Shown: positions 1,131 to 44,673 of the stretch, in pieces
Layout of the letters: every line of letters starts with the position of its first letter
How positions within the stretch are numbered: the stretch's first letter is position 1
NCBI GenBank assembly: GCA_964538435.1
Contig: CAZIDX010000003.1
Location: 15,948 to 79,947, forward strand
Source: an uncultured Gammaproteobacteria bacterium
GTDB lineage: Bacteria > Patescibacteriota > Patescibacteriia > UBA9934 > GWF2-40-263
Reading direction: 5' to 3'
Length of the DNA: 64,000 nucleotides
Program-made: the position numbers and the translations under genes
The notes under the pieces: generated by a model
What the model saw: the letters and a program-made list of their open reading frames with translations, nothing else
What the model was told of the DNA's origin: nothing
Databases searched by the model: none

Positions 1131-3671
1131 TTATTCTTGCACTGGAGTCTCTTCAGTTTCCGCCACAGGCTCTTCACCTGATTCCTCAAGCTCAGTATTT
1201 TCCCCTTCCTCTATTTCTCCATCCACCTCTTGAGCAGGCTCCTCAACGATCTCTCCGGTATCAATCTCTGTTGTAGCTCCTTGTCCTGACTGAATTGGCT
1301 CTGGAATCACTGTCGTCACCTCCCCAGCCTTCATACGCTCTAAACGATTCTGCGCGACCTCATTCCCTGGATTGTACTGAACCACCTGCTCAACAAGCCT
1401 TAGCGCTTCATATGTTTCTCCACTAATCTCATAGAGCGACGCTAGATACCAAAGCGCGTTCGAATAACTTGGATCAAGTTCCACGATCCGCTCTAGCTCG
1501 GTTGTGGCTGATTCATATTCCCCCAAACGAATGAGCATTTGTGAAAGCTGGAACGCAACACCAATATCAGCAAGGTTGTTATTTCTAAGTGCAGCCAACC
1601 GAACCGCAGCTTGTTCAAGCTGCCCCTGCCGTTCATATACTGCTGCTAAGTAGTAATGCGCTGGAAGATAATCAGATTTAAGCTCAACCGCTCCGGTAAA
1701 AGCTTCCTCAGCAACAAGTAGTAGTCCTGCCTCTTGCTCAGCAGCTGTTGTTGCAAGCTCAACATCTTCAGCATTTCGAAGCGCACGCGCCCGGTCTGCA
1801 ACCGTAAGATACACACGACCTAAGTTTGTTCTATGAGTTGGATTTGTTGGCTCAAGCTGAATAGCATTCATAAACATCTGCGCTGCCAAATCTTCTGCCC
1901 CCTGAGCAAAACTCATGAGATCTCGATAGATCGAACCAAGCATCACCCAGTTAGAAACATAGTTCGGCTCAATCCTTGTTGCAGCAGAGGCAGACCCAAT
2001 CGCTTTTGAAACAATATCTACCACCTCTTGTGTTTGCTCTGTTGTAAGCTCGGCTGTTGCACTCGAAACCACATTCTGTGCCTGCACAAGATAAGCAGAA
2101 GCAAGATTGCGTTGATAACTATCATTAAATCCATTCAAACTAACAGCCTCCTCAAGAGCAGAAACAACATAAGACACATCAGCTCCTCCCTGATCTAATT
2201 CAAGAGCTTTTGCAAACGTAACCTCAGCCGCATACCGCTGACCCGTTACAAACAATGAGCCAAGAAGAGCAATTGCAACCACCACAAACGCAAACGATGT
2301 TGCAAGCCCCAACTTTGGAGCTCGAGCAAAATCTGTTTTCCAAAACTTCACCATCACCTGAGAGGCTAAGAGGCCTGAAAAACCCCAAAGCATAAACTGC
2401 ATGGTGAAATTTGATGAATAAAGCAAATGCGAAATGAAAAGCACTGCCCACCCAGAGAACATCACATACGTCATCTTCCACTCTTCATGATCTCGCTCAA
2501 ACACAAGACGCCCAACAGCCTTCACCCCAATCCAAAACATGAGAACAAGCCACAGCACAGTCCCAACCACACCAAGTGTCGCAAACGTTGTCAGAGCAGC
2601 ACTTTTTGCGCGATCAAATCTGAGCATCCAAAGCTGAGAATTATTCACATCAGCTGGCTTGTATGCAAGATAATCATAAAGGAATGTTCCTGGCCCTGAC
2701 CCAAACAACAAGTTACTTGTTTCAGCCCCAACCGTTGTGGTTGCAATATCCCAACTTGTGCCAAAACTTGGCGAAACTACAATAGGAACACTGAGCTGAA
2801 ACGGAGTCGGTAAAAACAAAAGGACAACACTAACGAACAAAATAATCAAAGGAAGAGCAAACCTTTTAGGATTAGGGAACTCCTGGGACTGAATAAACAC
2901 GAATGTCCCCAAAAGAAGCACTCCAATAATATTAATTACCCAAAAGAGCCAAAAGTCTACAGAAACAAGCGTTACCAAATTAATAAGAGCCACTACAATA
3001 ATAAAGATGCGCATAGCAACCCCCAACCCTCCTTCTGGAATAACTCGATCTCTTCCTTTATTAGACACAAGCCACATTGCAAACCCCACAAACATAACAG
3101 CTGTCATGAACGTGATGAATCCATTAATCGTCCCAATCGTGTTAAACCCTATAGCCTGCGCAAAATCAAACGGTAAATAAAAAAGCCCAAGCATGCTCGA
3201 CAATGTGATGAGTCCTGTAATCGCAGAAGAAAGAAGCAGAGCAAACAAAATATTGCGCTGAACAAGCGTGTCATACGCGATATTCATGAGCATATAAAAC
3301 AAAAACACAAACATGGCCAAAGAAAGGAAGCTTGTATACTCCTGCGAAGCATCCCCCACCCATGTTCGGTATCCTGATACAGACAAGATCGAAGAAACAA
3401 GCACAGCGACAAAAAACAATGCTGGCACAAGATTAAGCCACCCCGATCTAAAAACAAGTTTCTTTGAAATCACCATTTGTCCAAACCACGCTGCAAGACC
3501 AACAACAGCTAGCACGACAAACAACATCTGCTTGTTCTGCTCCAGTACATTCGTTGTCCATGGAAGAAAAAAGATGGGGATGAGAAAGAACAAAAGGTAC
3601 ATTGCCCAAACGGCAGCCATTTGGAACACACCTGTGACCTCCTTTTTTCTCATTGCTGTAGTCGTTGGCAT
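1131..3671 (-). CDS. O-antigen ligase-like polytopic membrane protein with C-terminal TPR repeats and an acidic Glu-rich tail
   Basis: 846 aa. N-terminal about 450 aa with about 12 hydrophobic helices (Wzy_C-like architecture). C-terminal repeated TPR-like helical units (AxxYxxAxxxxP...). Tail EEPAQEVDGEIEEGENTELEESGEEPVAETEETPVQE. Confidence 0.6.
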   Translation of the reverse strand: MPTTTAMRKKEVTGVFQMAAVWAMYLLFFLIPIFFLPWTTNVLEQNKQMLFVVLAVVGLAAWFGQMVISKKLVFRSGWLNLVPALFFVAVLVSSILSVSGYRTWVGDASQEYTSFLSLAMFVFLFYMLMNIAYDTLVQRNILFALLLSSAITGLITLSSMLGLFYLPFDFAQAIGFNTIGTINGFITFMTAVMFVGFAMWLVSNKGRDRVIPEGGLGVAMRIFIIVVALINLVTLVSVDFWLFWVINIIGVLLLGTFVFIQSQEFPNPKRFALPLIILFVSVVLLFLPTPFQLSVPIVVSPSFGTSWDIATTTVGAETSNLLFGSGPGTFLYDYLAYKPADVNNSQLWMLRFDRAKSAALTTFATLGVVGTVLWLVLMFWIGVKAVGRLVFERDHEEWKMTYVMFSGWAVLFISHLLYSSNFTMQFMLWGFSGLLASQVMVKFWKTDFARAPKLGLATSFAFVVVAIALLGSLFVTGQRYAAEVTFAKALELDQGGADVSYVVSALEEAVSLNGFNDSYQRNLASAYLVQAQNVVSSATAELTTEQTQEVVDIVSKAIGSASAATRIEPNYVSNWVMLGSIYRDLMSFAQGAEDLAAQMFMNAIQLEPTNPTHRTNLGRVYLTVADRARALRNAEDVELATTAAEQEAGLLLVAEEAFTGAVELKSDYLPAHYYLAAVYERQGQLEQAAVRLAALRNNNLADIGVAFQLSQMLIRLGEYESATTELERIVELDPSYSNALWYLASLYEISGETYEALRLVEQVVQYNPGNEVAQNRLERMKAGEVTTVIPEPIQSGQGATTEIDTGEIVEEPAQEVDGEIEEGENTELEESGEEPVAETEETPVQE

Positions 3672-3703
3672 AAGACGAAAATGAAATTTTTGATAACCTG
3701 TTA

Positions 3704-4189
3704 TTAATTTGATCCTTTATACTGATAGATAGCCTGCATCACCTTTGAATCTGGCTTCATGTTCTCAAAAAAGAGAATGTGCTCTGGATTAAGTTGCATG
3801 ACATCCTCTGGTCCATGCGCTTCATTTCCAAGCTTGATAAGCGAGATGTTTGCTGCTGTGTCAACAGAAGTGCCTGACTGAAGATAATACACATCAGAAA
3901 GCGTATAAAACGGCTCAGTGGTAAGATCGAGCCTCCCAAAATACACCTGACCATTGTCCAAAAACACAGACTGATAAGCATCAGATGATGGAGTGATCTG
4001 AATCTCATCCCCATCTTCTGTGATAACCGTTGTCACCGGAAGTTCAGGTGCTGGCTTTAAAAACAACCACCATCCCGCAACAAGAACAATAGCGAGGATA
4101 ATGATCCCCCATATCCAACCGAAATTTCCTCCAGCCCCCTTCTTTGTGTGCCCAATTGGACCCTTGTTCATCTTTGATTCAATAGCCAT
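3704..4189 (-). CDS. Hypothetical membrane-anchored protein
   Basis: 161 aa with a single N-terminal TM helix (WIWGIIILAIVLVAGWWLFL). Same strand as, and tightly spaced with, the surface-protein cluster. Confidence 0.4.
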   Translation of the reverse strand: MAIESKMNKGPIGHTKKGAGGNFGWIWGIIILAIVLVAGWWLFLKPAPELPVTTVITEDGDEIQITPSSDAYQSVFLDNGQVYFGRLDLTTEPFYTLSDVYYLQSGTSVDTAANISLIKLGNEAHGPEDVMQLNPEHILFFENMKPDSKVMQAIYQYKGSN

Positions 4190-4265
4190 ATTGTTGAGGT
4201 AAATACGCTGATAATGTTACCTGAAGGCAGAGGTGCTGACAAGTTGACAACTCTCAATATATAAG

Positions 4266-4300
4266 CAAAAACAGGGCCTGTTTAGACCCTGTTTTGTTCT
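4266..4300. terminator. Intrinsic terminator downstream of the giant adhesin gene
   Basis: aaaaACAGGGcctgtttagaCCCTGTtttgttcttttt lies immediately after the stop of 4303..10887(-). Confidence 0.5.
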
Positions 4301-4302
4301 TT

Positions 4303-7300
4303 TTACTCTACGACAGGCTCCTCAACCACCGGCTCTTCCTCAACTGGCTCCTCAACAGGAACCTCCTCTTCAACCACCGGCTCTTCCTCAGCTGCAGGCT
4401 CTTCTACGACAGGCTCCTCAACCACCGGCTCTTCCTCAACTGGCTCCTCAGCAGGAACCTCCTCTTCAACCACCGGCTCTTCCTCAGCTGCAGGCTCTTC
4501 TTGAGCAGGAACCTCTGGCTCTGGAACTGGAGCTGGAGCAGGCGCTTCACTCACTGTTACCCCAATCGTTTCTGTTTCTCCATTTGAAATTGAGACAACT
4601 GGTTCAATTGCACCAATGGCAATCCAGTTAAGTTCAATATTGTCTGGAGTCGTGCTACCCGCACTGTGGTTAATTGTGAATCCAGTTGTTGACTCGTCAC
4701 TGATCCAAAGTCGACCAGGAACATGTTCTGCACTACGCACTGAGAATGTGACAATCGGAAGTGAGTCGTACTCATTCTCAAATGTTACACGCACTGAGTT
4801 ATCACCGGCATTGATCCTTGCTCGCCCAGCCATATCGCGTGATCCATAAAGGTGCTCAGCAACACTTACAGACCCAGCAAACACATGGTCGCCAACTTCT
4901 AGAGTCTCATCAGCCATAGCAACAGCATCACTGCTTCCACCCTGCAAGCTTGTTGCTGGCTCATACCAACCAGTGCTCACAAACACACGAATGGTTCCGT
5001 CACCCGCACCATCAAAGCTCTCCATGGCCGTACCAATCGTCCAACCTTCTGCAACAGCCTTTGCACCGTACCCAGCCACACTTGAAAGGCCAACCCGATC
5101 TCCCACAGCAATAGCGCCATTCTCTCCATTCACCTTTACAGGCACACGACCAGCAAGCGCCACTGGCATAACAAGCTCTCCAGGGAACTCATTACCAATC
5201 ACTTCAGCTGGATCAGTTGAGACAATACCAATCGCTTTTGTCCCAGCTCCTGAAACAGCTTTTTCAACCCTTGCATACTCATCAGTAAGAGACACAACAT
5301 CTCCCATTGCCACACCAGACGACACCTTATAATACTCAGCATAGTCAGCTCCGATTCCACCTTGGAACCACATTTCCACCCAATCCGTTCCATCATACAT
5401 AAGACCCAGAGTATCTCCATTTCCAAGCTCTCGGGTTGCAGCCCCAAGCTGAACCCCGCTCACAACTGAATCATGGTCGTTCAATGTAACCTTGTTTGTA
5501 GCGTGTGCCCCACGAAGGATCAAGGTCTGACCCTCAACACCATCACTGATTGATGGATTCGAAGTGAGAGTAACAGCACCGCTTCCTGTTACAGACACAT
5601 GAGCAGCAATTGGATTGATTGCACTACCAGTTAAAAGCCCTGTTTGTGCATTCGCCTCAAGAATCGCCTTACCCTTTGTAGTTGTATCTCCATCAGAATC
5701 TACTTTAAATACAACATTTGTTCCTGTGCTATCAACAATCCTAAACTCGCTCGAACCAGCAGCTTCTCCAAGTTGAGTAATCACATGACTTCCACTGTTT
5801 GAACTCTGCAAAACAAGATTTCCAGCTGTATTGTTGATCACCAAACTTCCAGTACCATTCACAATTCGAGAAAGTGAACCCGTATGATCGATAACCAGAT
5901 CAGAACCAGCACCAACATTAATCGCATCGTTATCTCCGACATTAATCGAACCAGTCACGGTAAGGTGGCCCTCATTCGTTCCTTCAGCCAATCTCATAAG
6001 TTGATTAGGTGTTCCTCCAGTATCCTCCTCAACCCAATCAATCAATGAACCCCCAGTATCTGTGATTGTGATCATGGCTGTATCATCTTCAAAATAGAGG
6101 TTTGTGTCCCACCCTGATCCAATCGCAAGTCCTGCCTCCAAAACAGATGTACTTGCAGAAGGGTTTGCTAAGTTGTTAATCGCAATTCCAGAATAGTAGT
6201 TATTCAGACCAGTCCATGTTGATCCGTTATTGTTCGCATTCACCGCAATCATGGTTTGCCTGTCAGTTCCATTTCCACCACCAGCACCTAATGTGTAGCT
6301 CATACCTGAATCGATCGTGTCAGTATTTGGTGTGTAGGTGTAGGAAAGACTGTTGCCAGCAGAACCAGTAATCGCGGTTAACACATCAAGTGTTAATGAA
6401 TCAGAGATCGCTGTGAAATCAAGCGTATCAGCAAGCAAATCTGCATTCTCCACATTTGTGAGTGTGTTTCCTGCTCCGTTCGCATCAAAAGCAGCTCCAG
6501 TAATAGCACCTGAGGTGCTGATATCCCAATCAGATGAATTGATCGCCACAGTTCCGCCACCCCCTCCAATCGTTACAGTACCTGTTGAAGTTCCTGTGTT
6601 GATCTGCGTATTGAAACCTGCATCATGGTTTAAGCTCACCAAACCACCAGCAATTCCAGCTCCAGCCTGTCCTGTGATCGTTCCTCCTGCTGTGATTGCA
6701 GTTACATCAGTAATGTTTCCAGATGCATCAACATCAAAGTCACCACCAGCAAACGAAATCGATCCATCAGAACCAGTAACACTCCAATTCGTTCCTCCAA
6801 GATCATTCGCTCCAGCAGCAAGCGCAGCACCGATCGCAGCCGCACTCACATCAATCGCTGTTGTAATCCCTCCGCCACCAGTTGAGGTCATGAGAACACC
6901 TCTTGTTATGGCTAAATCTGCATCTGCATTATCAATAACAATTGCACTATCAAAACCATTGATATTTGCACTGTCAAGCTGGGAAATAGATAGTCCATTT
7001 GCCACTCCGGCAGTAGTTGAAGGTGTACCGTTAATCTGAGCGGCATTCACTGACCCAGCAAGGTCGCTCGCAATCAGAACGTTCTCTGTTCCTGCAAGAG
7101 TAAAGTTCACATCACTCGAGAATGTGCTAACACCGCTGTCATTAATACGGAACACATCAGCACCTGCATCTCTAACAAGAAAATCTCCTGTTCCGTTTGC
7201 GTCAAAAATGAATGCACTCGCACCCAAATTGAACGTTGTCGAAGCATCAAGTGTAATATTGTCCCCAAGATGATCAAAAGACAAAGAATCATCCAGCACT

Positions 7301-10300
7301 TCATTTGCACCAACAGAATCCATTGGAAGCACAACCTCACTGTCACCCGACCCATCAGTCAAGAACGAAATCGCTGTCACTCCAGTTGTACCAACATTGA
7401 TTGAGGTTGCATTGCTTGTTCCAAGATTGAGCGCACCAGCACCAATGGTATCAAGACCTTGACCACCAGGGAGACTCAAGCTTCCAGCAGCAGTCAAAAG
7501 AACGTTTTGAGCAACCATGGAGATATTCTCCCCACTGTCCAATCCGTTCACACCAGCAATCAAGTTAAGAGCGGTTGTATCTCCTGACGTCACATTCAAA
7601 GCTGTTGTGCTGGTCAAATCTCCTCCACCAACATTTACATCACCAAGAACCTCAACATCTCCATCTTCATCAACAGCAAACAGTTCCACCCAGTTTCCAC
7701 TAGATGGTGTTGAGGCTCCCCTACCGATTTCAAACACTTGCTGGTTTGCAGCCATTCCTAAGTTTGTTGAATCTGCTCCATACACAAACATGGCCCGTCC
7801 AATGTTCGCTGACACGGTTCCAGCTGTTACGTTTGAGAGAAGCAAATCTGTTGCGTTATATCTTGTCAGGTAGTCAGAATCTGTTCCAAAAATGAGCGGA
7901 ATACCATCGTTAAGCTGAATGTTTCCAGATCCAAGCACGATTCCATTATCCCACCCTGTTCCAATATTAAGTGCTGTCTCAGTAATTCCTGCCTGCGCAG
8001 AACTCAAATTCCCAGCATTAAATCCATACAGAACGTCCGTGTCATTCGTTGCTGCGCTTGTTAGTGCAAGCTCAATTGCTGCAACACTGTTGTCGGTGTT
8101 GTCATCTCCAAGCGTGAAGTGGATATCAATCGCGTTATTTGCTCCTGGAGTACCACCATCAATATCGATAGTCTCTGTTAGATCAATGTCAATTCCTGCC
8201 GCATCAACAAGCATCTCACCAGCATCTGACTCAAGCCAAACCGTGGCGTTATTGCTTCCAACCTGGATAGTTCGTGCCCCGTCTGTTCCAATATTAATAC
8301 CCTGAGAAACATTATCATCTCCAATTCCAATTGTGCCAGCAGATGAATTAATCGAAAGCTTATCTACAGAATCGAGCTCTAGCGAATCTCCGGATGTAAG
8401 TAGAAGATCCCCTTCATTTCCAACTGTTCTAATCGTAAAGTCATCAACATCATCCGCAGCATTTGTAAGCTCAATCACGAGTGTCTGCGCGTTTGTTCCA
8501 TCATGCGCAGCAACGGAAATGTTATTTCCAAGAGCTGTATCACTCACAGTTGTCGCAACATCCAAACTAAAGATCCCGCCGTCTGCAATATCGATCGTTG
8601 TACTTCCAGTTGAATCAAGATCAATGGTTCCAGCAGAACTTCCTACCAAATTTCCACTCGTGGCTGTTGCGAGCGTCAGATTTCCACTCGTGGCTGTTAC
8701 ATTCGATGCTCCTGTTCCATCAATAGAGAATGTACTAGACGCAAGCATGTCATACGTTCCTGTAACATCGACATCTAAATTGGCGCCAGCGTTAATATCA
8801 ACAAGTCCAGCTGAGGTAACATCCGCCTCGGCCGCCGATGAAAGAAGGAGGTTTCCAGAAGTTGCAGTGGAAAGCGTCAAATCCCCGCTCGTTGCAGTCA
8901 CATTAGAAGTTCCTACACCATCAATACTGAACACTCCTGTTGACTGCATGTCATACAATCCAACCACATCAATATCCAAATTCGCTCCCGCGCTCATGTA
9001 TGTCATGTCAGCACTCATGAGATTCAAATCTCCAGATGTTGTCGTGCGAAGTGTAAGATTCCCGCTTGTGGCAGTAACATTTGAAGCTCCCACACCATCA
9101 ATACTAAAAATTCCTGTAGTATCAAGCGTAAATGTTCCACTATCAACATCAATTGCTGCGCCGGTGTTCACAACATCAATATCATTTGTTCCGTCACCTG
9201 TAAGATCTAGGTCTCCTCCATCAGAAGCAATAGCCACACCAGCACCTCCCATAGTCAAAGTCGCATCCGAGTCAATCGTTGCTGCACCAGTCGCATCTAC
9301 TCCATAAGTTGTTCCTGTTGTGATCGTAGCTGAAGTTGTTGTATCAAGTGTGTACGTTCCAGTGACATCCACATCCATGTTTGCTGCTCCGTTGATATCG
9401 AGAAGCCCTGCAGCTGTGATGTCTACCTCACCAGAAGTTGTTGTTGTAATTGTTAGGTCTGCACCAGCAACCGTGAAGTTTGAATTTGCTGCTGCGTCAA
9501 GTGAAATCGCTCCTGTTGAATCAACAAGTACACCGCCTGTACCTGCGTTCAAATCAAGAGTTGAGCTCGAAGTATTGTTTCCGATCGTAACGGATTTTGT
9601 TCCAGAACTGTTGTTTGCAAGATTGATGGAATCATTTCCTGTTCCAGTCGCCAGGTTAAGCGTGACTGCAACATCGTTATCCGCAATATTGATTGACTTG
9701 CTATCAGTTGAAGTTCGAAGGTAGATCTCACTCTGTGAGCTGGTCAAGTAAATATCTCCTGTGGAACCAGCTGCTGTAAGCGCGATATCACCATCTGATG
9801 TATCCATATTAATAGGTGAACCAGACCCAGATACGTCAATATCAACACCATGAGATGATGCTGATCCAACCAGGTTGATATCAAGTGTTCGCGCATCAAT
9901 CGTAACTGCACCACTCTCGTTCACACCAGACTCATACGCATCCAAATAAATTCCTGACCCACTTGTAGTGTCTGCATCAAGCATGACTGCATCACTCGCG
10001 GCCTCATCACCCTTTACAATCACTGACCCTGTATCTGCCAAAAGCGTAAGATCACCAGCCGTTGTCGTGAAGTTTGATGCCACATCAGACGAAAGCGAAA
10101 TCGCTCCGGTTCCAGTTGATGTGATTGCCTGCCCATCACTTAGCGTGAGCCAAGCAACCCCAGCATCTTGGAAGATCACATCACCTGTTCCCTGAGTATC
10201 AAAGATAAGATCTGGATTGTTTGTGGCAGAAAGCTCAAACTCAAACCCACCCGTCTGACCCTGCGCAGCGTCTACAGTAATTTTTGATGCTGTTGCACCA

Positions 10301-10887
10301 AAACTGTTATACGCCCCATCAAGGTTAAGCGAAGCTGAAGTTGCAAGCGCATCCCAAGAAGATCCGTTGTATACGCGGAATTCGTTTGCTGTAGCGTTGT
10401 AGTACATTCGCCCTTCAAACGCATTTGATGGATCGCTTGTGTTTGTCTGTACTGCTTGTGAAAAGACTGAGTAAGGAGTCTTAAGCACCTGAATTCGACC
10501 AACCGTGTCATAGGACCCGGCTGCATCGGCTTTTACTCGCACTTCCAAATACAAATCATCTACAAAGTCTCCGATATCTGTTCCAAGCGGAACAGCAAGC
10601 GAAAAAAAGCCGTTATCAACACTGATGTCATCAACGTCGATATCAGCTGCTGCAAGACCAGAGCCTCCAGAAGCAGCACTGTAGAAGTTAAATTGGAAAT
10701 CGTAGGTACCATCGGTAACTACATCTCCGGATGTGTCTTTAAGTCGTCCTTGATATCCAATACTTCCTGGATAACCGTAGGACTGTGCAGATGCCGTAGA
10801 AGGCATGGCGAGCAGGGCCATGGTAAGGGTGCTAAACACCATGGAAACCCCCACTAACGTGTGCACGAATATTTTGGCGGTTCGCAT
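4303..10887 (-). CDS. Giant secreted repeat protein (2194 aa) with signal peptide, Thr/Gly/Ser/Asp-rich beta-strand-like repeats and a C-terminal acidic (PVEEE)n tail. Putative surface adhesin or sheath protein.
   Basis: N-terminal signal peptide MRTAKIFVHTLVGVSMVFSTLTMALLAMPSTASA. Internal about 45-aa repeats (e.g. GVFSIDGVGASNVTATSGNLTL.TTTSGNL). C-terminal EPVVEEEVPAEEPVEEEPVVEEPVVEEPAAEE repeats. All plus-strand ORFs inside it (6353..7039, 8333..9307 and others) are low-complexity antisense shadows. Confidence 0.7.
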   Translation of the reverse strand: MRTAKIFVHTLVGVSMVFSTLTMALLAMPSTASAQSYGYPGSIGYQGRLKDTSGDVVTDGTYDFQFNFYSAASGGSGLAAADIDVDDISVDNGFFSLAVPLGTDIGDFVDDLYLEVRVKADAAGSYDTVGRIQVLKTPYSVFSQAVQTNTSDPSNAFEGRMYYNATANEFRVYNGSSWDALATSASLNLDGAYNSFGATASKITVDAAQGQTGGFEFELSATNNPDLIFDTQGTGDVIFQDAGVAWLTLSDGQAITSTGTGAISLSSDVASNFTTTAGDLTLLADTGSVIVKGDEAASDAVMLDADTTSGSGIYLDAYESGVNESGAVTIDARTLDINLVGSASSHGVDIDVSGSGSPINMDTSDGDIALTAAGSTGDIYLTSSQSEIYLRTSTDSKSINIADNDVAVTLNLATGTGNDSINLANNSSGTKSVTIGNNTSSSTLDLNAGTGGVLVDSTGAISLDAAANSNFTVAGADLTITTTTSGEVDITAAGLLDINGAANMDVDVTGTYTLDTTTSATITTGTTYGVDATGAATIDSDATLTMGGAGVAIASDGGDLDLTGDGTNDIDVVNTGAAIDVDSGTFTLDTTGIFSIDGVGASNVTATSGNLTLRTTTSGDLNLMSADMTYMSAGANLDIDVVGLYDMQSTGVFSIDGVGTSNVTATSGDLTLSTATSGNLLLSSAAEADVTSAGLVDINAGANLDVDVTGTYDMLASSTFSIDGTGASNVTATSGNLTLATATSGNLVGSSAGTIDLDSTGSTTIDIADGGIFSLDVATTVSDTALGNNISVAAHDGTNAQTLVIELTNAADDVDDFTIRTVGNEGDLLLTSGDSLELDSVDKLSINSSAGTIGIGDDNVSQGINIGTDGARTIQVGSNNATVWLESDAGEMLVDAAGIDIDLTETIDIDGGTPGANNAIDIHFTLGDDNTDNSVAAIELALTSAATNDTDVLYGFNAGNLSSAQAGITETALNIGTGWDNGIVLGSGNIQLNDGIPLIFGTDSDYLTRYNATDLLLSNVTAGTVSANIGRAMFVYGADSTNLGMAANQQVFEIGRGASTPSSGNWVELFAVDEDGDVEVLGDVNVGGGDLTSTTALNVTSGDTTALNLIAGVNGLDSGENISMVAQNVLLTAAGSLSLPGGQGLDTIGAGALNLGTSNATSINVGTTGVTAISFLTDGSGDSEVVLPMDSVGANEVLDDSLSFDHLGDNITLDASTTFNLGASAFIFDANGTGDFLVRDAGADVFRINDSGVSTFSSDVNFTLAGTENVLIASDLAGSVNAAQINGTPSTTAGVANGLSISQLDSANINGFDSAIVIDNADADLAITRGVLMTSTGGGGITTAIDVSAAAIGAALAAGANDLGGTNWSVTGSDGSISFAGGDFDVDASGNITDVTAITAGGTITGQAGAGIAGGLVSLNHDAGFNTQINTGTSTGTVTIGGGGGTVAINSSDWDISTSGAITGAAFDANGAGNTLTNVENADLLADTLDFTAISDSLTLDVLTAITGSAGNSLSYTYTPNTDTIDSGMSYTLGAGGGNGTDRQTMIAVNANNNGSTWTGLNNYYSGIAINNLANPSASTSVLEAGLAIGSGWDTNLYFEDDTAMITITDTGGSLIDWVEEDTGGTPNQLMRLAEGTNEGHLTVTGSINVGDNDAINVGAGSDLVIDHTGSLSRIVNGTGSLVINNTAGNLVLQSSNSGSHVITQLGEAAGSSEFRIVDSTGTNVVFKVDSDGDTTTKGKAILEANAQTGLLTGSAINPIAAHVSVTGSGAVTLTSNPSISDGVEGQTLILRGAHATNKVTLNDHDSVVSGVQLGAATRELGNGDTLGLMYDGTDWVEMWFQGGIGADYAEYYKVSSGVAMGDVVSLTDEYARVEKAVSGAGTKAIGIVSTDPAEVIGNEFPGELVMPVALAGRVPVKVNGENGAIAVGDRVGLSSVAGYGAKAVAEGWTIGTAMESFDGAGDGTIRVFVSTGWYEPATSLQGGSSDAVAMADETLEVGDHVFAGSVSVAEHLYGSRDMAGRARINAGDNSVRVTFENEYDSLPIVTFSVRSAEHVPGRLWISDESTTGFTINHSAGSTTPDNIELNWIAIGAIEPVVSISNGETETIGVTVSEAPAPAPVPEPEVPAQEEPAAEEEPVVEEEVPAEEPVEEEPVVEEPVVEEPAAEEEPVVEEEVPVEEPVEEEPVVEEPVVE
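4306..4515. repeat. Tandem direct repeat, 2 x about 105 bp, inside the 3' end of the giant gene (encodes the acidic PVEEE tail)
   Basis: ctacgacaggctcctcaaccaccggctcttcctcaactggctcctcaacaggaacctcctcttcaaccaccggctcttcctcagctgcaggctctt repeated with one substitution. Confidence 0.8.
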
Positions 10888-10922
10888 ACGTTAGGTTTTA
10901 ACCTGTTGTTATTGGGTGCAAA

Positions 10923-12149
10923 TTATTGTTTGCGTTTTTTTGTTAAAAGAATGAATGTCATCAGGACAAGGACAAGAGCAGCAATCCCACTTGCTACCAT
11001 TCCCCACGACCATGAATCGTCATTATTGTCATCATCGATTCCCATTGCAGATGTAAGAACATCTGATTCTGCAGTAGGTTCATACCCCTCAGGGCGATCT
11101 AGATCTGTTCCCTCTGGATACACGCGCACAGACACAGCCTCATATGCACTATTCCCTGCTCGATCAAGCGCTGCCACACGAAACTGATATGTACCAGCCT
11201 CCAAATCCTCAATCTCAAGCGGGCTAGTCTGCACCTGGAAGTCGCTCTCATTAATCGCGATCTGATACTGAGCAACGCCGGACGTCTCATCAGTTGTGGC
11301 AAATGTGAGCCACACAGACTCACCCTCTACAACCTGCCCCTGCTCAGCTGTAAGCTCAATTGGATTTGGTGGAGTTGTATCAACAAGAACGGTTCGTGAT
11401 GCAATCTCTGTTTCTTCCTCTCCAGAAACCCCCTTCACACGAAAGTGGTAGATCCCATCTTCAAGCTCCTGCCAGCTCGCACTGAGCTCTTCCCCCTCTA
11501 GCTTCATATCAAGCTCTGTATCAGCAGCTGCCCCGAGCCCGTACCAATATTCATCAACCTCCACTTCAGGCTCTGTCCAAGTGATCTCAGAAGTATTTAC
11601 CGAATACCACTGAGCAGCATTTGGATGCGTACTGCTCTCAACAACAAGCCCAACCTCTTCCTCAGATACCCCCTCAACAAGCACCTCGGAGGTACCAAGC
11701 AATCCTGTATTTATCTTCTCTTCTCCATTTGCAATCGCACGCGAATCACCTGAAATGCTCAGCGTCGCCTCACCTTCAGTCAATGCAAGAAACGTTATCG
11801 TCACAAGCGCTGATTCTTCCACAACTGGACCACGAAGCGTGAAGCCGCCCCATGAAACCTTTCCATTCACATTATCGCGATAATTTCCGGGTGCGGATCG
11901 CTCAAATGCTCCTGTAAGCTGCGCACTACTTGCGCTCAAAACAGTTGGATCATAGGTCACAACAGCTCGAGCTGTATCAAGCTCCTCACCATTTGGATTG
12001 ATCATGACAACCACATCGAACATGGCACCTTGCTCAACCTCAATAGTCTGAGAATCAAAACTCATTGTGGCGTTTCCTACTGCCCCAACCCACATTGGGA
12101 GAGCAAGAAATGCGCTTGCAATAATCAGTAAGGTAAGAAAATTTCTCAT
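10923..12149 (-). CDS. Cell-surface protein with N-terminal cohesin-like domain, FN3-like middle region, acidic linker and C-terminal TM anchor
   Basis: Signal peptide MRNFLTLLIIASAFLALPMWVGA. Cohesin-like hallmarks: VVTYDPTVLSA (compare cohesin VxYDPxVLE), TITFLALTEGEATL. C-terminal hydrophobic anchor MVASGIAALVLVLMTFILL + KKRKQ. Confidence 0.55.
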   Translation of the reverse strand: MRNFLTLLIIASAFLALPMWVGAVGNATMSFDSQTIEVEQGAMFDVVVMINPNGEELDTARAVVTYDPTVLSASSAQLTGAFERSAPGNYRDNVNGKVSWGGFTLRGPVVEESALVTITFLALTEGEATLSISGDSRAIANGEEKINTGLLGTSEVLVEGVSEEEVGLVVESSTHPNAAQWYSVNTSEITWTEPEVEVDEYWYGLGAAADTELDMKLEGEELSASWQELEDGIYHFRVKGVSGEEETEIASRTVLVDTTPPNPIELTAEQGQVVEGESVWLTFATTDETSGVAQYQIAINESDFQVQTSPLEIEDLEAGTYQFRVAALDRAGNSAYEAVSVRVYPEGTDLDRPEGYEPTAESDVLTSAMGIDDDNNDDSWSWGMVASGIAALVLVLMTFILLTKKRKQ

Positions 12150-12180
12150 ACATCTATATCCCCCTAATCAGTCATTATCG

Positions 12181-13029
12181 TTAAACACGAACACCCCATC
12201 GAGCAACCATCATTGAAAAATCATAGTCGTCAACGGCTTCATCTTCATTAAAATCCCCCTCGCGCGAATCATCTCCCCAAAATCCAATAAGCAAACTGAG
12301 GTCATAGTCATTCACAACATCATCCCCATTCACATCACCTACAAGCCGTCTATAAATCTCGTAATCAATTTCATCAATGCTGTTTTGCCCATCAAACGCC
12401 TCAATCGTGAACGTGTTCAAACCATAAGAAAGTGCAACTTCTGCCTGCCAATCTTCTCCGTCATACTCCCCATCAACATCTTCACCATTAATTTCAAGCC
12501 CATCAACACCATCCTCTGCTTCACCAAAAAGCAAAATAGATGATCCAAATGTAAACTCCATCTCTTCCAAACTTCCATCTACTGCAAGATCTCCAGAGGT
12601 TGCAGGTGATGCAGCTCCACCTCCACCACCTCCACCGGGTGCTGGTGGTGAGCCAGACGAGCAACTGCTAGTATCAAACGACGCGCAATCAGAAGCACAC
12701 GCTAACGTTCCAGAATCAAATCCCTGAGTTACACATGTTTGGCTATTCAAATTATTTCCGTCACACGTCTCAAGCGGATCACGAAAACCATCACCGCAGT
12801 AATAGGCAAACGAGGAACCTGACTCAACTTCATACGAAGTTCCTGTCACGCTCCCAACAAGCGGCTCAACAGCACCATCAACCTGATAGGAAGTCCCTGT
12901 CAAAGTGTCATGGCTAGAAAAAACGTTTGCATCTGGATTGAGCTGATAGGTTGTCCCTGTAATCGCCCCCACGCTCATTGGCATAGCTACGATCAAGGTT
13001 GCAATCGTCAATGTGATAATGGATTTCAT
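12181..13029 (-). CDS. Secreted protein with a Myxococcus-type Cys-rich repeat (CGDG...ExCDDGN), Gly-rich linker and C-terminal type-I dockerin-like duplicated Ca-binding segment
   Basis: Signal peptide. YYCGDGFRDPLETCDGNNLNSQTC...ACASDCASFDTSSC. PPAPGGGGGGGAASPA linker. C-terminus GDVNGDDVVNDYDLSLLIGFWG ... GDFNEDEAVDDYDFSMMVARWG (two dockerin-like repeats, DxNxDxxxNxxD + helix). Confidence 0.55.
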   Translation of the reverse strand: MKSIITLTIATLIVAMPMSVGAITGTTYQLNPDANVFSSHDTLTGTSYQVDGAVEPLVGSVTGTSYEVESGSSFAYYCGDGFRDPLETCDGNNLNSQTCVTQGFDSGTLACASDCASFDTSSCSSGSPPAPGGGGGGGAASPATSGDLAVDGSLEEMEFTFGSSILLFGEAEDGVDGLEINGEDVDGEYDGEDWQAEVALSYGLNTFTIEAFDGQNSIDEIDYEIYRRLVGDVNGDDVVNDYDLSLLIGFWGDDSREGDFNEDEAVDDYDFSMMVARWGVRV

Positions 13030-13052
13030 AATCTTTTTTTGAATCTCGTGGG

Positions 13053-14132
13053 TTATCCCTCCAACAAACCTTCCCCATTAGGGTTGTAGCCATTCTCTAC
13101 CTCTGATCCGTCATCATAACCATCACCATCTGTGTCTGCATTTTCAGGATCAGTCCCCCATGTATTTGTTTCATCATGATCGCTCAAACCATCACCATCT
13201 GTATCAATGTCCGCATCTACTTCAGCTTCGGTCTCAGTCGTAGTTTCTGTCACATCCTCAGTTTCAGCCTCGTCATAGGTGAGCAAATCTGTGTAAGCGA
13301 TAGTGTGAAGCACATTCCACTCCATGTCCGTTGAAGGCATGGTTGCGTACTTCTGCCCAAAAAGCTCAAGCGCATCCTCTTCTGCTTGAACATCGCGAGG
13401 GTCTCCCTGACACCCGCCGTAGGCAATGCAGTGAAGAGCCTGCCAATCGTTCCCATTTGATGGCATGCGCGCATAAAACGCGCCAAAGTAAACAAGAGCT
13501 TGTGCCTCAAGCTCTGCATCTGTATTCTCACCAAGGCCATGCTCAGTGTCAGTTGTGTCTGTATCAGTGTCATCTGTGTCACCTGTCACATCAAAGTCAG
13601 CATCCCCATCAGAAAAATAATCCAGTCCAATTGTTGCAACCTCACCACCAGAAACAGTAATGGTCGATTGTCCCAAACTGGAAGTATCTAGCTTTTCCTC
13701 ACCATCATTGATGAGCATTGAGTCATCATCAACATTTATCTCCACGGTCCCAGAACGGAAGGCGTGAAAATTGAGCGTGAAAAGCGTTCCTGAATAATCA
13801 ATTTGATCTCCGAATTTATATGCACCAACACTAAGCTCTCCGCTTGTGTTGTCTCCCCAATTCGAAGGGAGTGCATAAGGGAATAAATCACCCCTCTCAT
13901 ACGAAATAATCTCCATCACACTTGCATCAAAGCTCAGATTAAGTCGCGCAGTATCAATCGATTCACCGTTTGGGGTGAAAAGGACATCTACAGAAAAACT
14001 GTCTCCAGTTTCAACAGAAGTGCTGTGAGGAGACAGCCAAAGAGTGGACGAGCCGCTTGCGTGAACAGGTTGCAAACCAAAACTCGATACGAAAATAAGA
14101 AGTCCCAAAAAGAGGACGGCGAACTTCTTCAT
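13053..14132 (-). CDS. Secreted protein with N-terminal cohesin-like domain, an internal about 45-aa duplicated segment and C-terminal thrombospondin-type-3-like Ca-binding repeats
   Basis: Signal peptide MKKFAVLFLGLLIFVSSFGLQPVHA. LNLSFDASVMEII / TLFTLNFHAFRSGTVEI cohesin-like signature. Duplicated YFGAFYARMPSNGNDWQALHCIAY / LFGQKYATMPSTDMEWNVLHTIAY. C-terminal DTDGDGLSDHDETNTWGTDPENADTDGDGYDDGSEV. Confidence 0.5.
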   Translation of the reverse strand: MKKFAVLFLGLLIFVSSFGLQPVHASGSSTLWLSPHSTSVETGDSFSVDVLFTPNGESIDTARLNLSFDASVMEIISYERGDLFPYALPSNWGDNTSGELSVGAYKFGDQIDYSGTLFTLNFHAFRSGTVEINVDDDSMLINDGEEKLDTSSLGQSTITVSGGEVATIGLDYFSDGDADFDVTGDTDDTDTDTTDTEHGLGENTDAELEAQALVYFGAFYARMPSNGNDWQALHCIAYGGCQGDPRDVQAEEDALELFGQKYATMPSTDMEWNVLHTIAYTDLLTYDEAETEDVTETTTETEAEVDADIDTDGDGLSDHDETNTWGTDPENADTDGDGYDDGSEVENGYNPNGEGLLEG

Positions 14133-14406
14133 AAGAAAAAATTACGGCGGATTAGTCGGGACTATTTTGGAGAGCCCCTTGGGAGCAGTAACCGACAACG
14201 ACCCTCTTCAACAACTGCCAAGCAACTGGGATTGCTGGCGCTGCCTGAAGAAGGTTGTGGGTGCGTCGAAACTTATTCAAAGTATAGCAAAAAAATGAGT
14301 GTTTTTCGATGCAAACTGTGTATAAATCAAGTGATATTTTTGGTTAAAAAACTGTGCAAAAAGCAAAAACAGATACCATACAAAAAACCTGATATAATAA
14401 CCGCGT

Positions 14407-16077: not shown

Positions 16078-16154
16078 TGGTGCGCGTATCTGGATTTGAA
16101 CCAGAGACCTCCACAATGTCAATGTGGCACTCTAACCAACTGAGCTATACGCGC
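16078..16154 (-). tRNA. tRNA-Val (anticodon GAC), CCA encoded
   Basis: Minus strand GCGCGTATAGCTCAGTTGGTTAGAGTGCCACATTGACATTGTGGAGGTCTCTGGTTCAAATCCAGATACGCGCACCA. Acceptor GCGCGTA/TACGCGC, anticodon loop TTGACAT, T-loop TTCAAAT. Confidence 0.8.
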
Positions 16155-16759: not shown

Positions 16760-16835
16760 GGGCCTGTAGCTCAGTGGTTAGAGCGCGAAGCTTATACCTT
16801 CGTGGTCGATGGTTCAAATCCATCCAGGCCCACCA
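16760..16835 (+). tRNA. tRNA-Ile with anticodon UAU (unmodified-type AUA decoder), CCA encoded
   Basis: GGGCCTGTAGCTCAGTGGTTAGAGCGCGAAGCTTATACCTTCGTGGTCGATGGTTCAAATCCATCCAGGCCCACCA. Acceptor GGGCCTG/CAGGCCC. Anticodon stem CGAAG/CTTCG with loop CTTATAC, giving anticodon TAT. Confidence 0.75.
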
Positions 16836-19145: not shown

Positions 19146-19208
19146 TCTATCAAAAAACACAACCCAAACAGGTTGTGTTTTGTATTAGAAAAGCCTAACC
19201 CCGAAAGA

Positions 19209-20516
19209 TTAGGCAGCGACCTTGAGCTCCCTGATGATGAGCTGCTCACGGTCAGGACCCACACCGATCATGGTGACAGGCACCCCTGTCATCTGTTCGA
19301 TTGTGCGGATGTAGAACTGAGCGTTCTGCGGGAGATCACCGAACGTGCGGCACCCCGTGATGTCCTCCTCCCAACCAGGAAGCTCCTGGTAGAGCGGCTC
19401 GCACGATTCCATCAGCTCGGTCGTGAGCGTGGCGTGATCACCAACCCTATCCATGTGGGCAAACCGCTGAAGATCCGAGCCAGCCATCTTGTAGCCCACG
19501 CAAACCTTCAGAGCCCCCAGGCCCGAGAGCACATCCAGCTTGGTGATGCACAACTCGCGAACCCCGCCCACACGCACACTGTAACGCAGCGCGAACAGAT
19601 CGAGCCACCCACAGTCACGCGGACGTCCTGTGGTCGAGCCGTACTCGTGACCACGATCACGCAGCTCCTGACCCACCTCATCGTCGAGCTTGGTCGGGAA
19701 CGGACCCGCACCCACTCGCGTAAGGTACGCCTTGGCCACAGCGATCACACGATCGAACTCGTAGACCCCCATGGACTGGGAAATACCACCCAGGGTCGTG
19801 GACGAAGACGTGCAGAACGGATTGGTTCCGTTCATCAAGTCGAGCAGGACACCTTGCGCACCCTCGAACAGAACATCCTTCCCCTCAGCCATGGAGCGCT
19901 GGAGGATCTCGCGTGTGTCCCCACGATGCATGTAGAGCACCTTGGCCCGCTTCATCACCCACGCCACCGTCTCATCGAGCGTCATGGGCACGATCTCAGA
20001 CCCGTCGAACTCCTTACACCGCGAGTTGTAGTACTCACCATGCTCGAGTGCGCGACGAATCGCAGCCTCGCTCTTGAGATCACGGATCTTCAGACCACGA
20101 CGCGCAACCATGTCCTCGTAGCACGGACCGATCCCACGATGAGTGGTCCCGATCTTATCCTTGCCCAACCGAGACTCACGCAGCTGGTCGATCTGCTTGT
20201 GAAGCGGAAGCACAACAGGGGCATTGAAATCGAGCACGACCTGAGCACCACGCTCAGTCGCAAGCACGAGTTCTTCGTAGACCACCTCCATGTCATGCGC
20301 CACGCCCGGCCCGGTCAGATTGAGAACACCCTTGCGGATGATCCCAGACGGAAGCACATGCAGAACGAACTTCGTATTGCCGACCCAGATGGTGTGGCCA
20401 GCATTGGCTCCACCATAGAATCGCACCACGATCTTGACGGCTCGAGCAAGCAGGTCAACGACCTTTCCCTTGCCCTCATCGCCCCATTGACCACCGAGCA
20501 CCACGTCACGAGACAC
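19209..20516 (-). CDS. purA: Adenylosuccinate synthetase. GC-rich codon usage unlike flanking genes.
   Basis: N-terminal GGQWGDEGKGKVVDLLA P-loop signature and GANAGHTI. Full length 435 aa. Plus-strand ORF 19173..20534 is its antisense shadow. Confidence 0.85.
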   Translation of the reverse strand: MSRDVVLGGQWGDEGKGKVVDLLARAVKIVVRFYGGANAGHTIWVGNTKFVLHVLPSGIIRKGVLNLTGPGVAHDMEVVYEELVLATERGAQVVLDFNAPVVLPLHKQIDQLRESRLGKDKIGTTHRGIGPCYEDMVARRGLKIRDLKSEAAIRRALEHGEYYNSRCKEFDGSEIVPMTLDETVAWVMKRAKVLYMHRGDTREILQRSMAEGKDVLFEGAQGVLLDLMNGTNPFCTSSSTTLGGISQSMGVYEFDRVIAVAKAYLTRVGAGPFPTKLDDEVGQELRDRGHEYGSTTGRPRDCGWLDLFALRYSVRVGGVRELCITKLDVLSGLGALKVCVGYKMAGSDLQRFAHMDRVGDHATLTTELMESCEPLYQELPGWEEDITGCRTFGDLPQNAQFYIRTIEQMTGVPVTMIGVGPDREQLIIRELKVAA

Positions 20517-20677
20517 AGATCACCTCCTTGGTGAAAGCTCCTTTCAGAAGAAGAGCCACGAAGACCTTACCAACCCTCTATTTTTTAAGCAAGATTAAAG
20601 GTCTAGATCTAAAAAACACCACATGTTATACTTAACCCACGAAAACTGCACCCATTTATTTCGGCCGTTTTCAAAGA

Positions 20678-27980: not shown

Positions 27981-28010
27981 CAAAAACAGGGCTCTTCGAC
28001 CCTGTTATTT
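27981..28010. terminator. Intrinsic terminator after the Cys-rich protein gene
   Basis: caaaaACAGGGctcttcgaCCCTGTtattt. Confidence 0.5.
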
Positions 28011-29627: not shown

Positions 29628-30361
29628 AGCTCTTCCTGAGCCGCCAGAGCTTGTGCCATAAGATCAAGCACCTCTGCTGGAATCGCTCCTGGAATGCGGT
29701 TGCCGTTAATAAAGAAGGTTGGTGTTCCGCGCACACCAGCTTCTGTTCCAGCTTCAAAATCCTCCATCACCTCGTTTTCCATTTCACCGGACTCAAGACA
29801 GGACCTGAACTTAACAATATCAATATTGAGCTGCTCAGCCAGCAAGTAAAGCTCTTCCTCATCTAAGTCGCTTTGGTTCTGATAAAGCTTGTCATGATAC
29901 TCCCAAAACTTTCCCTGCGCATGCGCACACTCCCCTGCCTGAGCAGCAAGAAGGGCGATTGGGTGCAGCTCAAGAATTGGAAAATCGCGATACACGTAAT
30001 ACACATCGTCTGGATATGTCGCTGCTAGTTCACGCAGTGTTGTGCTTGTCTCCTTTGAGTATGGACACCCAAAATCTGCAAACTCCACAATCGTCATTGG
30101 CGCCCCAAGCTTTCCAAGCGAAGGGTCATCTGCTGAAACCACATCAATCTCACCTTCAGGAAGCGAATTACTTGTCAGTGATGCGTTTGTTGAAAACGCA
30201 CCAACGGATTGCAAATCCAAATCATCTGTTTTCCCTGTCTTGATAGCGTCCACATAAAAGAGCACACGAAAAACAAAAAGGCCTGCCACCACAAGCATGA
30301 CAATAGTTACGATCGTTGCGAGCCAATTACGATCTTTGTGAATCTGCGCGTCAGTTTTCAT
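29624..30361 (-). CDS. DsbA-family thioredoxin-fold oxidoreductase with N-terminal membrane anchor (CPYS active-site variant)
   Basis: TM anchor LATIVTIVMLVVAGLFVF. Thioredoxin-like FADFGCPYSKE motif. DsbA-like length, with a second Cys pair FRSC. Confidence 0.55.
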   Translation of the reverse strand: MKTDAQIHKDRNWLATIVTIVMLVVAGLFVFRVLFYVDAIKTGKTDDLDLQSVGAFSTNASLTSNSLPEGEIDVVSADDPSLGKLGAPMTIVEFADFGCPYSKETSTTLRELAATYPDDVYYVYRDFPILELHPIALLAAQAGECAHAQGKFWEYHDKLYQNQSDLDEEELYLLAEQLNIDIVKFRSCLESGEMENEVMEDFEAGTEAGVRGTPTFFINGNRIPGAIPAEVLDLMAQALAAQEEL

Positions 30362-36014: not shown

Positions 36015-36150
36015 TCAAAAAGACCAAAAACCCGCCAGAAGGTGGGTTTTTAGGTTGACAAAAGTGCCAAAACGTGCTATGGTAGTTAACCAAAACTGAA
36101 CAACCCTGAAACGAACAACTCTCTGCACAACATGCAGATGAAAGGACGCT

Positions 36151-36498: not shown

Positions 36499-36658
36499 CC
36501 CCCAACGGACCCCGTCCGCGAACGAGCCCTGCTGCTCGCGCGGCGGGGTTATTTCGTTTAGCAACCCCCATGGAGATGGCGACCTGAAGGCCTCGACGGC
36601 CTGACAGGTCGCAGCCCCCACCACCCCTCCCAAAGGCCCAGGACGTCAAACGGCCGTT

Positions 36659-44665: not shown

Positions 44666-44673
44666 AGCGACAT

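Follow-up and report, generated by a model that had tools for sequence, protein, structure and literature searches.

Background

By what means do the Parcubacteria hold on to other cells? Most of them, Uhrbacteria included, are uncultured and presumed to live attached to other cells. We studied a 64,000-nt stretch of DNA (contig CAZIDX010000003.1 of assembly GCA_964538435.1, positions 15,948 to 79,947 of the forward strand; hereafter the window, whose coordinates are used throughout) that carries a six-gene cluster for secreted and membrane proteins. Among these are two cohesin proteins, here called Coh1 and CohTM, a dockerin-tailed protein, Doc, and a giant protein of 2194 aa. The source organism is a Candidatus Uhrbacteria-like bacterium belonging to the candidate phyla radiation (CPR): homologues of the cluster proteins were named Candidatus Uhrbacteria or Parcubacteria, and the window presented CPR traits such as a T4SS-pilin-domain protein and DsbA (see below). 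The reading that we favour, and to which we give an even chance, is that Doc is a dockerin-tailed adaptor plugging a trimeric adhesive fibre, the giant protein, into the membrane-anchored cohesin of CohTM, so that the operon would build and anchor a surface fibre.

Organization of the gene cluster

The cluster spans positions 1131-14132 and lies entirely on the minus strand. A preliminary description of this DNA had listed six co-oriented genes in the same interval, and all of the open reading frames (ORFs) were found there. In the order of transcription, and followed by two putative control signals, they are:

13053-14132, minus strand: Coh1, secreted cohesin protein, 359 aa, first gene transcribed
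12181-13029, minus strand: Doc, dockerin-tailed secreted protein, 282 aa, second gene
10923-12149, minus strand: CohTM, membrane-anchored cohesin, 408 aa, third gene
4303-10887, minus strand: giant fibre protein, 2194 aa, fourth gene
3704-4189, minus strand: small bitopic membrane protein, 161 aa, fifth gene
1131-3671, minus strand: polytopic membrane protein whose TPR domain is extracytoplasmic, 846 aa, sixth gene
14281-14309, minus strand: promoter-like site from a consensus scan, TCGAAA-17-TATACT plus the TG of an extended -10
1100-1126, no strand assigned: intrinsic-terminator-like hairpin, 11-bp stem flanked on either side by T/A runs

Together the genes make up a single operon. Intergenic gaps measured 23-113 nt, neighbouring genes sit in different reading frames, and a signal peptide or a transmembrane (TM) segment was found in all six proteins. 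The terminator-like hairpin lies 5 nt past the stop codon of the 846-aa gene and closes the operon. At the other end, the promoter-like site is located 150 nt upstream of the Coh1 gene, inside a 274-nt divergent intergenic region; promoter-like sites in the window did not exceed the number expected by chance, and it is the position alone that supports this one.

The dockerin protein Doc

Searches with Pfam hidden Markov models (HMMs) at the gathering cut-offs (Cohesin 24.1, TSP3_bac 25, Dockerin_1 22.9 and fn3 25 bits) detected both the cohesin and the dockerin families in the cluster proteins and their orthologues, as the preliminary description had anticipated. Doc matched Dockerin_1 (PF00404) with 23.8 bits and was the only dockerin found in an HMM scan of the 64-kb window. 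From its N-terminus the protein presents a signal peptide, three S-T-S-Y-x-L repeats (aa 23-75), a module with six Cys (aa 76-125), a Gly-rich linker, an Ig-like domain (aa 148-227) and the dockerin (aa 228-282, nt 12184-12348). The dockerin is the expected duplication of a segment of about 22 residues made of an EF-hand-like Ca-loop and a helix (acidic or amide residues at loop positions 1, 3, 5, 9 and 12), its two segments lying at residues 232-253 and 259-280, each with a D-x-N-x-D...[ND]-D-Y-D loop. The duplicated Ca-binding segment noticed at the outset is therefore a dockerin with two canonical loops, while the Cys-rich repeats ascribed to the same protein were reduced to a single six-Cys module with no repeat array.

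Sequence conservation within the family points to the same parts of the protein. In 41 homologues the acidic residues, the D-Y-D-[LF]-S motif and the downstream Trp of the dockerin are invariant, and the dockerin is the best-conserved part of Doc, with 61% mean identity and 11 invariant residues in the two Ca-loop/helix segments. The Cys-rich module comes close (59% mean identity), and its six Cys are all invariant in the family. A profile of the 41 homologues matched the solved dockerins 4fl4, 2jnk, 1daq, 2mte and 2y3n (E 4e-4 to 0.02), and a precomputed PF00404 match was present on many of the homologues. In the AlphaFold model of Doc (mean predicted local distance difference test score, pLDDT, 75.5) the dockerin was modelled as two helices at 94-98, the Ig-like domain at about 90, the Cys-rich module at about 80-89 and the S-T-S-Y repeats at about 40. 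The predicted dockerin fold matched that of the NagH dockerin, taken from a solved non-cellulosomal cohesin-dockerin complex. At a pLDDT of about 40 the N-terminal repeats are predicted to be disordered alone, which is how a segment that takes up its fold on binding a partner would be expected to look.

Elsewhere in the window, at 28005-30361 (minus strand), a 540-aa T4SS_pilin (PF18895) protein is encoded co-directionally, with a 4-nt overlap, with a gene for a DsbA-like thioredoxin. This DsbA-like protein may have a bearing on the six invariant Cys of Doc.

The cohesin proteins Coh1 and CohTM

Coh1 and CohTM are the only cohesins within the window, and their cohesin domains are close paralogues (cross-HMM E about 1e-40). 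Coh1 matched Cohesin (PF00963) with 35.6 bits, which bears out its earlier designation as a second cohesin-like protein, and 14 of 16 orthologues also presented the match. The protein consists of a signal peptide, the cohesin (aa 26-170, nt 13623-14057), an acidic linker, two copies of a repeat of about 30 aa with the consensus E..AL.yFGaf..rMPs..DW.aLH.IAY (aa 205-283, nt 13284-13520) and a Ca-binding TSP3 tail at about aa 300-350. The thrombospondin-type-3 repeats of the preliminary description were present (TSP3_bac, PF18884, 25.2 bits against a cut-off of 25) but are not conserved: among the 16 orthologues they occurred in two, the window protein and L012, and the tail is variable. The repeat of about 30 aa is not in Pfam; it follows the cohesin in 2-6 copies in orthologues (L002, L018, L023, L028 and L030) and may be a wall-binding module. 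In one orthologue a faint match to a pseudomurein-binding repeat was seen (E 0.028).

CohTM contains a signal peptide, a cohesin (aa 24-165, nt 11655-12080), two Ig/FN3-like domains (aa 166-345), an acidic linker, a TM segment (aa 384-402) and a KKRKQ tail, and this architecture was kept across 23 orthologues. The protein matched fn3 with 27.8 bits, Y_Y_Y with 27.7 and an NCBIfam OmpL47-type barrel with 39.2. The cohesin of the window protein scored 23.2 bits, 0.9 below the cut-off, and 16 of the 23 orthologues matched Cohesin (best E 7.4e-9). A CohTM profile run against PDB found the FN3 domain and a marginal cohesin match (5g5d, E 0.6). The family-level matches remove the doubt left by the borderline scores of the CohTM cohesin and the Doc dockerin; the earlier account of a cohesin-like protein with FN3 and a C-terminal TM anchor is thus upheld, with the cohesin borderline in the window itself.

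The giant, probably fibre-forming protein

The preliminary description took the 2194-aa protein for a giant repeat adhesin with a signal peptide. The signal peptide was found; DNA tandem repeats were detected by TRF in the acidic tail only, and self-BLAST gave no internal repeats. The protein is better described as a fibre resembling both phage tailspikes and the mosaic adhesive trimer (MAT) fibres (see below), with an N-domain, a variable shaft, an auto-chaperone, a putative H-type lectin and an acidic tail. It contains no Cys, 0.8% Lys and 21% Ser+Thr. Orthologues measured 1800-2880 aa and were conserved only in the first 200-400 or so and the last 350 or so residues. The shaft (about aa 180-1780) is rich in G, T, A, S and D, and variable in length and sequence between species.

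Directly behind the signal peptide lies a MAT-type N-domain (aa 35-175, nt 10363-10785). Residues 35-103 matched NCBIfam NF053851 (Bdello_MAT_N) with E 7.4e-4 and 19.4 bits, and 31 of 34 orthologues matched at E<=0.1 (best E 3e-11). The 60-bit cut-off of that model was set for the Bdellovibrio subfamily, and the match indicates homology of the domain, not membership of the MAT subfamily.

After the shaft come a small beta-sandwich, an auto-chaperone like the D4 domain of phi29 gp12 (about aa 1845-1980, nt 4948-5355), a putative H-type lectin region (about aa 2017-2100, nt 4588-4839) and the acidic Pro/Glu tail (aa 2120-2194). The AlphaFold model of aa 1780-2125 had a pLDDT of 80 with two blocks above 90, and presents the tandem beta-tulip fold of the gp12 C-terminal domain; in a fold search against predicted viral structures the top matches were preneck appendage proteins (E 8.6e-10). 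Sequence searches were less telling: Peptidase G2 (PF11962) gave no match to the window protein at E<=1, and matched one of 17 orthologues (E 2e-4), three more distant homologues carrying a precomputed PF11962 match. The auto-chaperone starts with GAD1848YAE1851, and in the motif G-A-D-x-A-E D1848 never varies, while E1851 is kept in at least 90% of cases. G2 autocleavage proceeds through such an Asp/Glu pair, and D1848 and E1851 may correspond to the gp12 catalytic residues, reportedly described by Xiang et al. in 2009.

The sole Pfam match in the giant protein was a sub-threshold one to H_lectin (PF09458); sugar binding by this region is putative. The whole sequence had no match in PDB, a profile of its C-terminus against PDB sequences gave noise only, and PHROGs returned nothing useful for this protein, the 161-aa protein, Doc or the 846-aa protein. 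The (PVEEE)n tail had been recognized before; it also holds a 96-nt tandem duplication (4307-4501, 98% identical, no indels) that looks like a recent expansion. No dockerin was detected in the giant protein by HMM, and it is therefore not itself the docked cargo. In the earlier proposal that a cellulosome-like docking system is reused for surface architecture or attachment, which is partly supported, the modules, the absence of glycoside hydrolases and the membrane-anchored cohesin stand.

The signal peptide of the giant protein (10800-10887, minus strand) is unusually long and conserved across species as MRTAKxxLHxxVxISMVFYTLAxALLAxP. In this it is reminiscent of signal peptides, extended or specialised, known from other very large surface proteins.

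The accessory membrane proteins

The fifth gene agrees with the small membrane protein described before: 161 aa with a conserved cytoplasmic N-terminus (MAIESKMxRGPIG), an N-terminal TM segment (aa 26-44) and a conserved ectodomain of about 90 aa. Thirteen orthologues shared 30 invariant columns, with 61% mean identity in the ectodomain, and neither Pfam nor NCBIfam nor a profile search of PDB gave a match.

The 846-aa protein contains at least 10 TM segments (aa 1-500, nt 2172-3671), TPR repeats (about aa 550-775) and an acidic tail. It is the best-conserved gene product of the operon, its membrane domain being 50-72% identical among Uhrbacteria, and belongs to a very large family of membrane and TPR proteins of about 800 aa (2285 clusters at 50% identity). 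Pfam recognized TPR families only. The earlier label of an O-antigen-ligase-like/TPR membrane protein therefore holds for the TPR and TM parts; the ligase part does not, as Wzy_C (PF04932) had no match in the protein, in 6 orthologues or in its 120 closest homologues, and matched two of 40 distant family members (best E 3.5e-8). The ligase-like identity is thus a weak, transitive suggestion.

Conservation of the cluster across genomes

A pattern scan of one genome per species retrieved 43 loci, nearly all from Uhrbacteria metagenome-assembled genomes (MAGs), and the order Coh1-Doc-CohTM-giant-small-TPR is near-invariant in them. Counting only loci with enough flanking DNA, the Coh1 gene was directly upstream of the Doc gene in 32 of 37 loci, and the CohTM gene directly after Doc in 36 of 38, so that the adjacency of a membrane-anchored cohesin to a dockerin-bearing partner, first pointed out in the preliminary description, is general. 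The giant gene came next after the CohTM position in 36/37 loci, the 161-aa gene after the giant gene in 12/12, and the 846-aa gene after the 161-aa gene in 10/12. In the two divergent loci L004 and L027 the Doc gene is followed directly by the fibre gene.

Related gene pairs, each a dockerin-tailed secreted protein and then a TM-anchored cohesin, were found in other Parcubacteria:

L047, 3407-4871: dockerin-tailed / TM-cohesin gene pair
L047, 7247-11019: dockerin-tailed / TM-cohesin gene pair
L048, 149-7076: dockerin-tailed / TM-cohesin gene pair

In the two pairs of L047 the cohesin protein is composed of a signal peptide, a cohesin, a linker and a C-terminal TM segment. The dockerin-tailed proteins of these other Parcubacteria include a repeat protein of 974 aa and an Ig-like one of 211 aa, and after either of them comes a TM-cohesin gene. 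A TM-anchored cohesin encoded beside its dockerin-tailed partner looks like a general module in this group. The dockerin motif differs from pair to pair (DDYDFS versus DALDFN), and one 1254-aa protein has two cohesins, which suggests that CPR bacteria have a wider display system of diversified specificity.

Eleven public third-party-annotation (TPA) MAGs labelled 'uncultured Gammaproteobacteria bacterium' carry the Uhrbacteria-type operon (L013, L019-L023, L031, L035, L038, L042 and L043), and these labels are probably wrong.

Co-variation of the domains and proposed assembly

Distance matrices of eight domains from 29 loci were compared by partial-Mantel analysis in all 28 pairs, with the mean of the other domains as control. 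By Spearman partial correlation the top pair was the dockerin with the CohTM cohesin (0.43). The dockerin with the CohTM Ig domains (0.42) was among the top three pairs, and the Doc N-repeats with the fibre N-domain also reached 0.42 and were the top pair by Pearson partial r (0.50). After these came the CohTM cohesin paired with its own chain's Ig domains, and the dockerin with the Coh1 cohesin (0.39 each). The two ends of Doc behaved separately: the N-repeats gave 0.00 with their own dockerin and 0 or less with either cohesin, and the dockerin gave 0.07 with the fibre N-domain. This ranking is what an adaptor with two interfaces predicts. The two-interface model of Doc rests on it, and also on the predicted disorder of the Doc N-repeats, on the Doc-fibre adjacency that persists in the divergent loci and on the N-domain of MAT fibres, whose partner is not yet identified.

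We therefore propose the following assembly for the adaptor reading. The 2194-aa protein is secreted and probably forms a trimeric, phage-tailspike-like fibre of the MAT kind, whose N-domain of about 140 aa should sit at the cell surface and whose shaft is lineage-variable. Conserved ends, a variable shaft and C-terminal modules of a trimer type are in keeping with such a fibre. The gp12-type auto-chaperone would nucleate trimerisation and may cleave itself at G-A-D1848-x-A-E1851. CohTM would be the socket, its cohesin held off the membrane on two Ig/FN3 domains by the C-terminal TM segment, and Doc the plug, its Ca-type dockerin binding the CohTM cohesin. The S-T-S-Y repeats and the Cys-rich module of Doc would in turn hold the fibre N-domain, with the result that the fibre would be docked to the membrane through the cohesin-dockerin pair. 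The Coh1 cohesin would bind the same dockerin, and the Coh1 repeats may tie the complex to the wall. The Wzy_C-related/TPR protein of 846 aa and the 161-aa protein are seen as conserved accessory factors that may act in transferring glycan to the fibre or in assembling it.

Several points weigh against this assembly. The partial-Mantel test is liberal on related sequences, half of the pairs having p<=0.01, so that only the ranking of the above values is informative; a mirror-tree control with housekeeping genes was uninformative, with 10 shared loci only. The cohesin score of the window CohTM lies under the Pfam cut-off, and the MAT N-domain scores of all orthologues lie far under the curated one (19.4 versus 60 bits for the window protein). 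No cohesin gene was present in the fetched DNA of L004 and L027. Something else could anchor the fibre, such as the TPR domain, the 161-aa protein or the acidic tail of the fibre itself. Cleavage at the auto-chaperone would drop the downstream lectin, which fits a tip-lectin adhesin poorly.

Alternative explanations

The main rival is that two independent surface modules share the operon. The cohesin-dockerin pair would then display Doc itself, with its Cys-rich and Ig-like domains as functional cargo (e.g., a ligand or metal binder), and the fibre would be anchored apart, whether by its own N-domain or by the 161-aa or the TPR protein. We regard this as rather unlikely. It would account for the lack of a dockerin in the giant protein, for the other Parcubacteria that put the dockerin directly on the cargo (the 974-aa repeat and 211-aa Ig-like proteins), for a Cys-rich module as conserved as the dockerin and for a 161-aa gene that always follows the fibre gene; it does not explain why the Doc-fibre adjacency persists without CohTM in L004 and L027, nor why the Doc N-repeats co-vary with the fibre N-domain above any part of their own chain. 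Still less probable, in our estimate, is a role in general envelope architecture, in which the giant protein would be part of a surface layer or sheath, glycosylated or ligated to the wall by the Wzy_C-like/TPR protein, and the cohesin-dockerin pair a tie between wall and membrane. The high conservation of the 846-aa protein and its CPR-wide family, the two distant family members that match Wzy_C, the Ser+Thr content of the fibre, the polysaccharide-synthesis cluster at 42.9-53 kb of the same window and Coh1 repeats that could bind the wall all agree with such a role. However, the ends of the giant protein matched a MAT N-domain, a gp12 auto-chaperone and an H-lectin rather than S-layer families, and its shaft varies between species in length and sequence as adhesin shafts do.

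Two further explanations have very little left in their favour. The C-terminal region of the giant protein does match phage preneck-appendage proteins and tailspikes, as it would if the locus were a prophage or tailocin remnant and the protein a plain phage tail fibre, but the cluster contains no other phage gene, PHROGs was empty, all the proteins carry secretion signals, and homologues of the auto-chaperone domain were also found outside phage contexts. The same housekeeping genes flank the cluster in distant relatives, and this constancy excludes a mobile element or prophage; the phage origin was rejected on these grounds. A true cellulosome-like complex for polysaccharide degradation, which the cohesin and dockerin modules might evoke, was likewise rejected and is just as improbable. 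Neither Pfam nor NCBIfam detected any glycoside hydrolase (GH), carbohydrate esterase (CE), polysaccharide lyase (PL) or carbohydrate-binding module (CBM) family in the six proteins, in agreement with the preliminary description as to glycoside hydrolases, nor was any found among 20 other window ORFs scanned, and the 64 kb hold one dockerin and two single-cohesin proteins with no multi-cohesin scaffoldin.

Comparison with known systems

The closest known counterparts of the giant protein are the MAT fibres of Bdellovibrio bacteriovorus, which have a beta-rich, conserved domain about 130 aa long immediately behind the signal peptide, presumed to bind a surface element not yet identified (Caulton et al. 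2024, PMC10769870). Apparently common to both are the signal peptide followed by a beta-rich N-domain of about 130-140 aa, the long variable fibre, the C-terminal tip of chaperone/lectin type and the occurrence in a small bacterium living on other cells. The giant protein is, however, twice as long, its tip is a phi29-gp12 (G2-type) auto-chaperone with a putative H-type lectin instead of an S74 domain or NS74 tips, and it is encoded in a monoderm-like CPR cell within a fixed operon that also codes for cohesin, dockerin and membrane proteins. The C-terminal domain of the phi29 gp12 preneck appendage (MEROPS G2, PF11962, PDB 3GQH) drives tailspike trimerisation and is then cleaved off. In contrast to gp12, the giant protein is cellular and secreted, and the domain that is terminal in gp12 is followed here by the putative H-type lectin and the acidic tail.

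Anchoring scaffoldins of cellulosomes include SdbA and OlpB of C. thermocellum and ScaE of R. flavefaciens, which anchors the adhesin CttA through an X-dockerin. The likeness lies in an envelope-bound cohesin that accepts a dockerin-tailed protein, as CohTM would do; in R. flavefaciens that protein can be an adhesin rather than an enzyme. The differences are that a C-terminal TM helix serves here in place of SLH domains or a sortase, and that there are one dockerin, two single-cohesin proteins, no enzymes and no CBM, in a non-cellulolytic organism. Non-cellulosomal cohesins and dockerins were reportedly surveyed by Peer et al. in 2009; the NagH-NagJ pair of Clostridium perfringens (PDB 2OZN/2JNK) joins secreted glycoside hydrolase toxins, not a surface protein to a membrane anchor. 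As to the 846-aa protein, the Wzy_C superfamily includes the WaaL O-antigen ligase and the PglL/PilO O-oligosaccharyltransferases. The protein shares with them a polytopic structure with a large extracytoplasmic part, and the window also contains an undecaprenyl-phosphate sugar transferase cluster; the protein differs in the C-terminal TPR domain and in the lack of a PF04932 match, extending to its closest homologues.

Non-cellulosomal cohesins and dockerins, MAT fibres and tailspike auto-chaperones are thus already known separately. Literature searches on cohesin or dockerin together with CPR, Patescibacteria, Parcubacteria or Uhrbacteria did not turn up this cluster; nor did we find described its fixed one-operon combination, in a CPR lineage, of a single dockerin protein as proposed adaptor, two paralogous cohesins (one TM-anchored), a MAT-like fibre with G2-type chaperone and putative H-lectin, and two membrane proteins.

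Other features of the window

A surface-polysaccharide cluster was located at 42904-52944 on the plus strand and includes:

42904-44316, plus strand: Bac_transf initiating sugar transferase
45929-47080, plus strand: GT4 glycosyltransferase
48238-51099, plus strand: DUF4012 protein
51103-52944, plus strand: DUF11 repeat protein

This cluster could supply lipid-linked glycan to the Wzy_C-related 846-aa protein. Positions 36000-42000 have 54-58% GC as compared with about 46% in most of the window. An ORF in this stretch (36895-39060, minus strand, 721 aa) showed strong Cu-binding_MopE Cys-rich motifs (E 1.4e-33), and the ORFs at 39302-40981 and 41095-42285 had no Pfam match.

A tRNA-Ile with the anticodon TAT (16760-16835, plus strand), near a tRNA-Val(GAC) at 16078-16154, reads AUA directly, which is uncommon in bacteria. 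Ribosomal protein L19 (18591-19145, plus strand) has an N-terminal extension of about 65 aa on the called start, the Pfam domain covering residues 68-166 of 184. The ORFs at 19173-20534 (plus strand, 453 aa) and 21660-23381 (minus strand, 573 aa) gave no Pfam match; in a related 502-kb contig a 570-aa gene, also without a Pfam match, occupies a similar position between UvrA and L19.

Conclusions

The operon order is kept in at least 43 species-level genomes and its products are secreted or membrane proteins only, which makes it a concrete, cloneable candidate for an attachment apparatus. We advance more tentatively, and with some doubt, the wider proposal that a two-faced Doc adaptor provides the first anchoring mechanism to be identified for MAT-type fibres and that the whole is a host-attachment organelle common to the Uhrbacteria lineage. 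The parts are small enough for direct biochemistry (the 55-aa dockerin, the 140-aa cohesins and the 140-aa fibre N-domain). If the proposal is true, a cohesin-dockerin pair would serve, in a phylum that is not cellulolytic, as the membrane socket of a surface structure that is not enzymatic. MAT/tailspike-like fibres would reach beyond predatory Proteobacteria, with Doc as a possible holder of the MAT N-domain, and the organelle would combine a module known from cellulosomes with one known from phage tailspikes.

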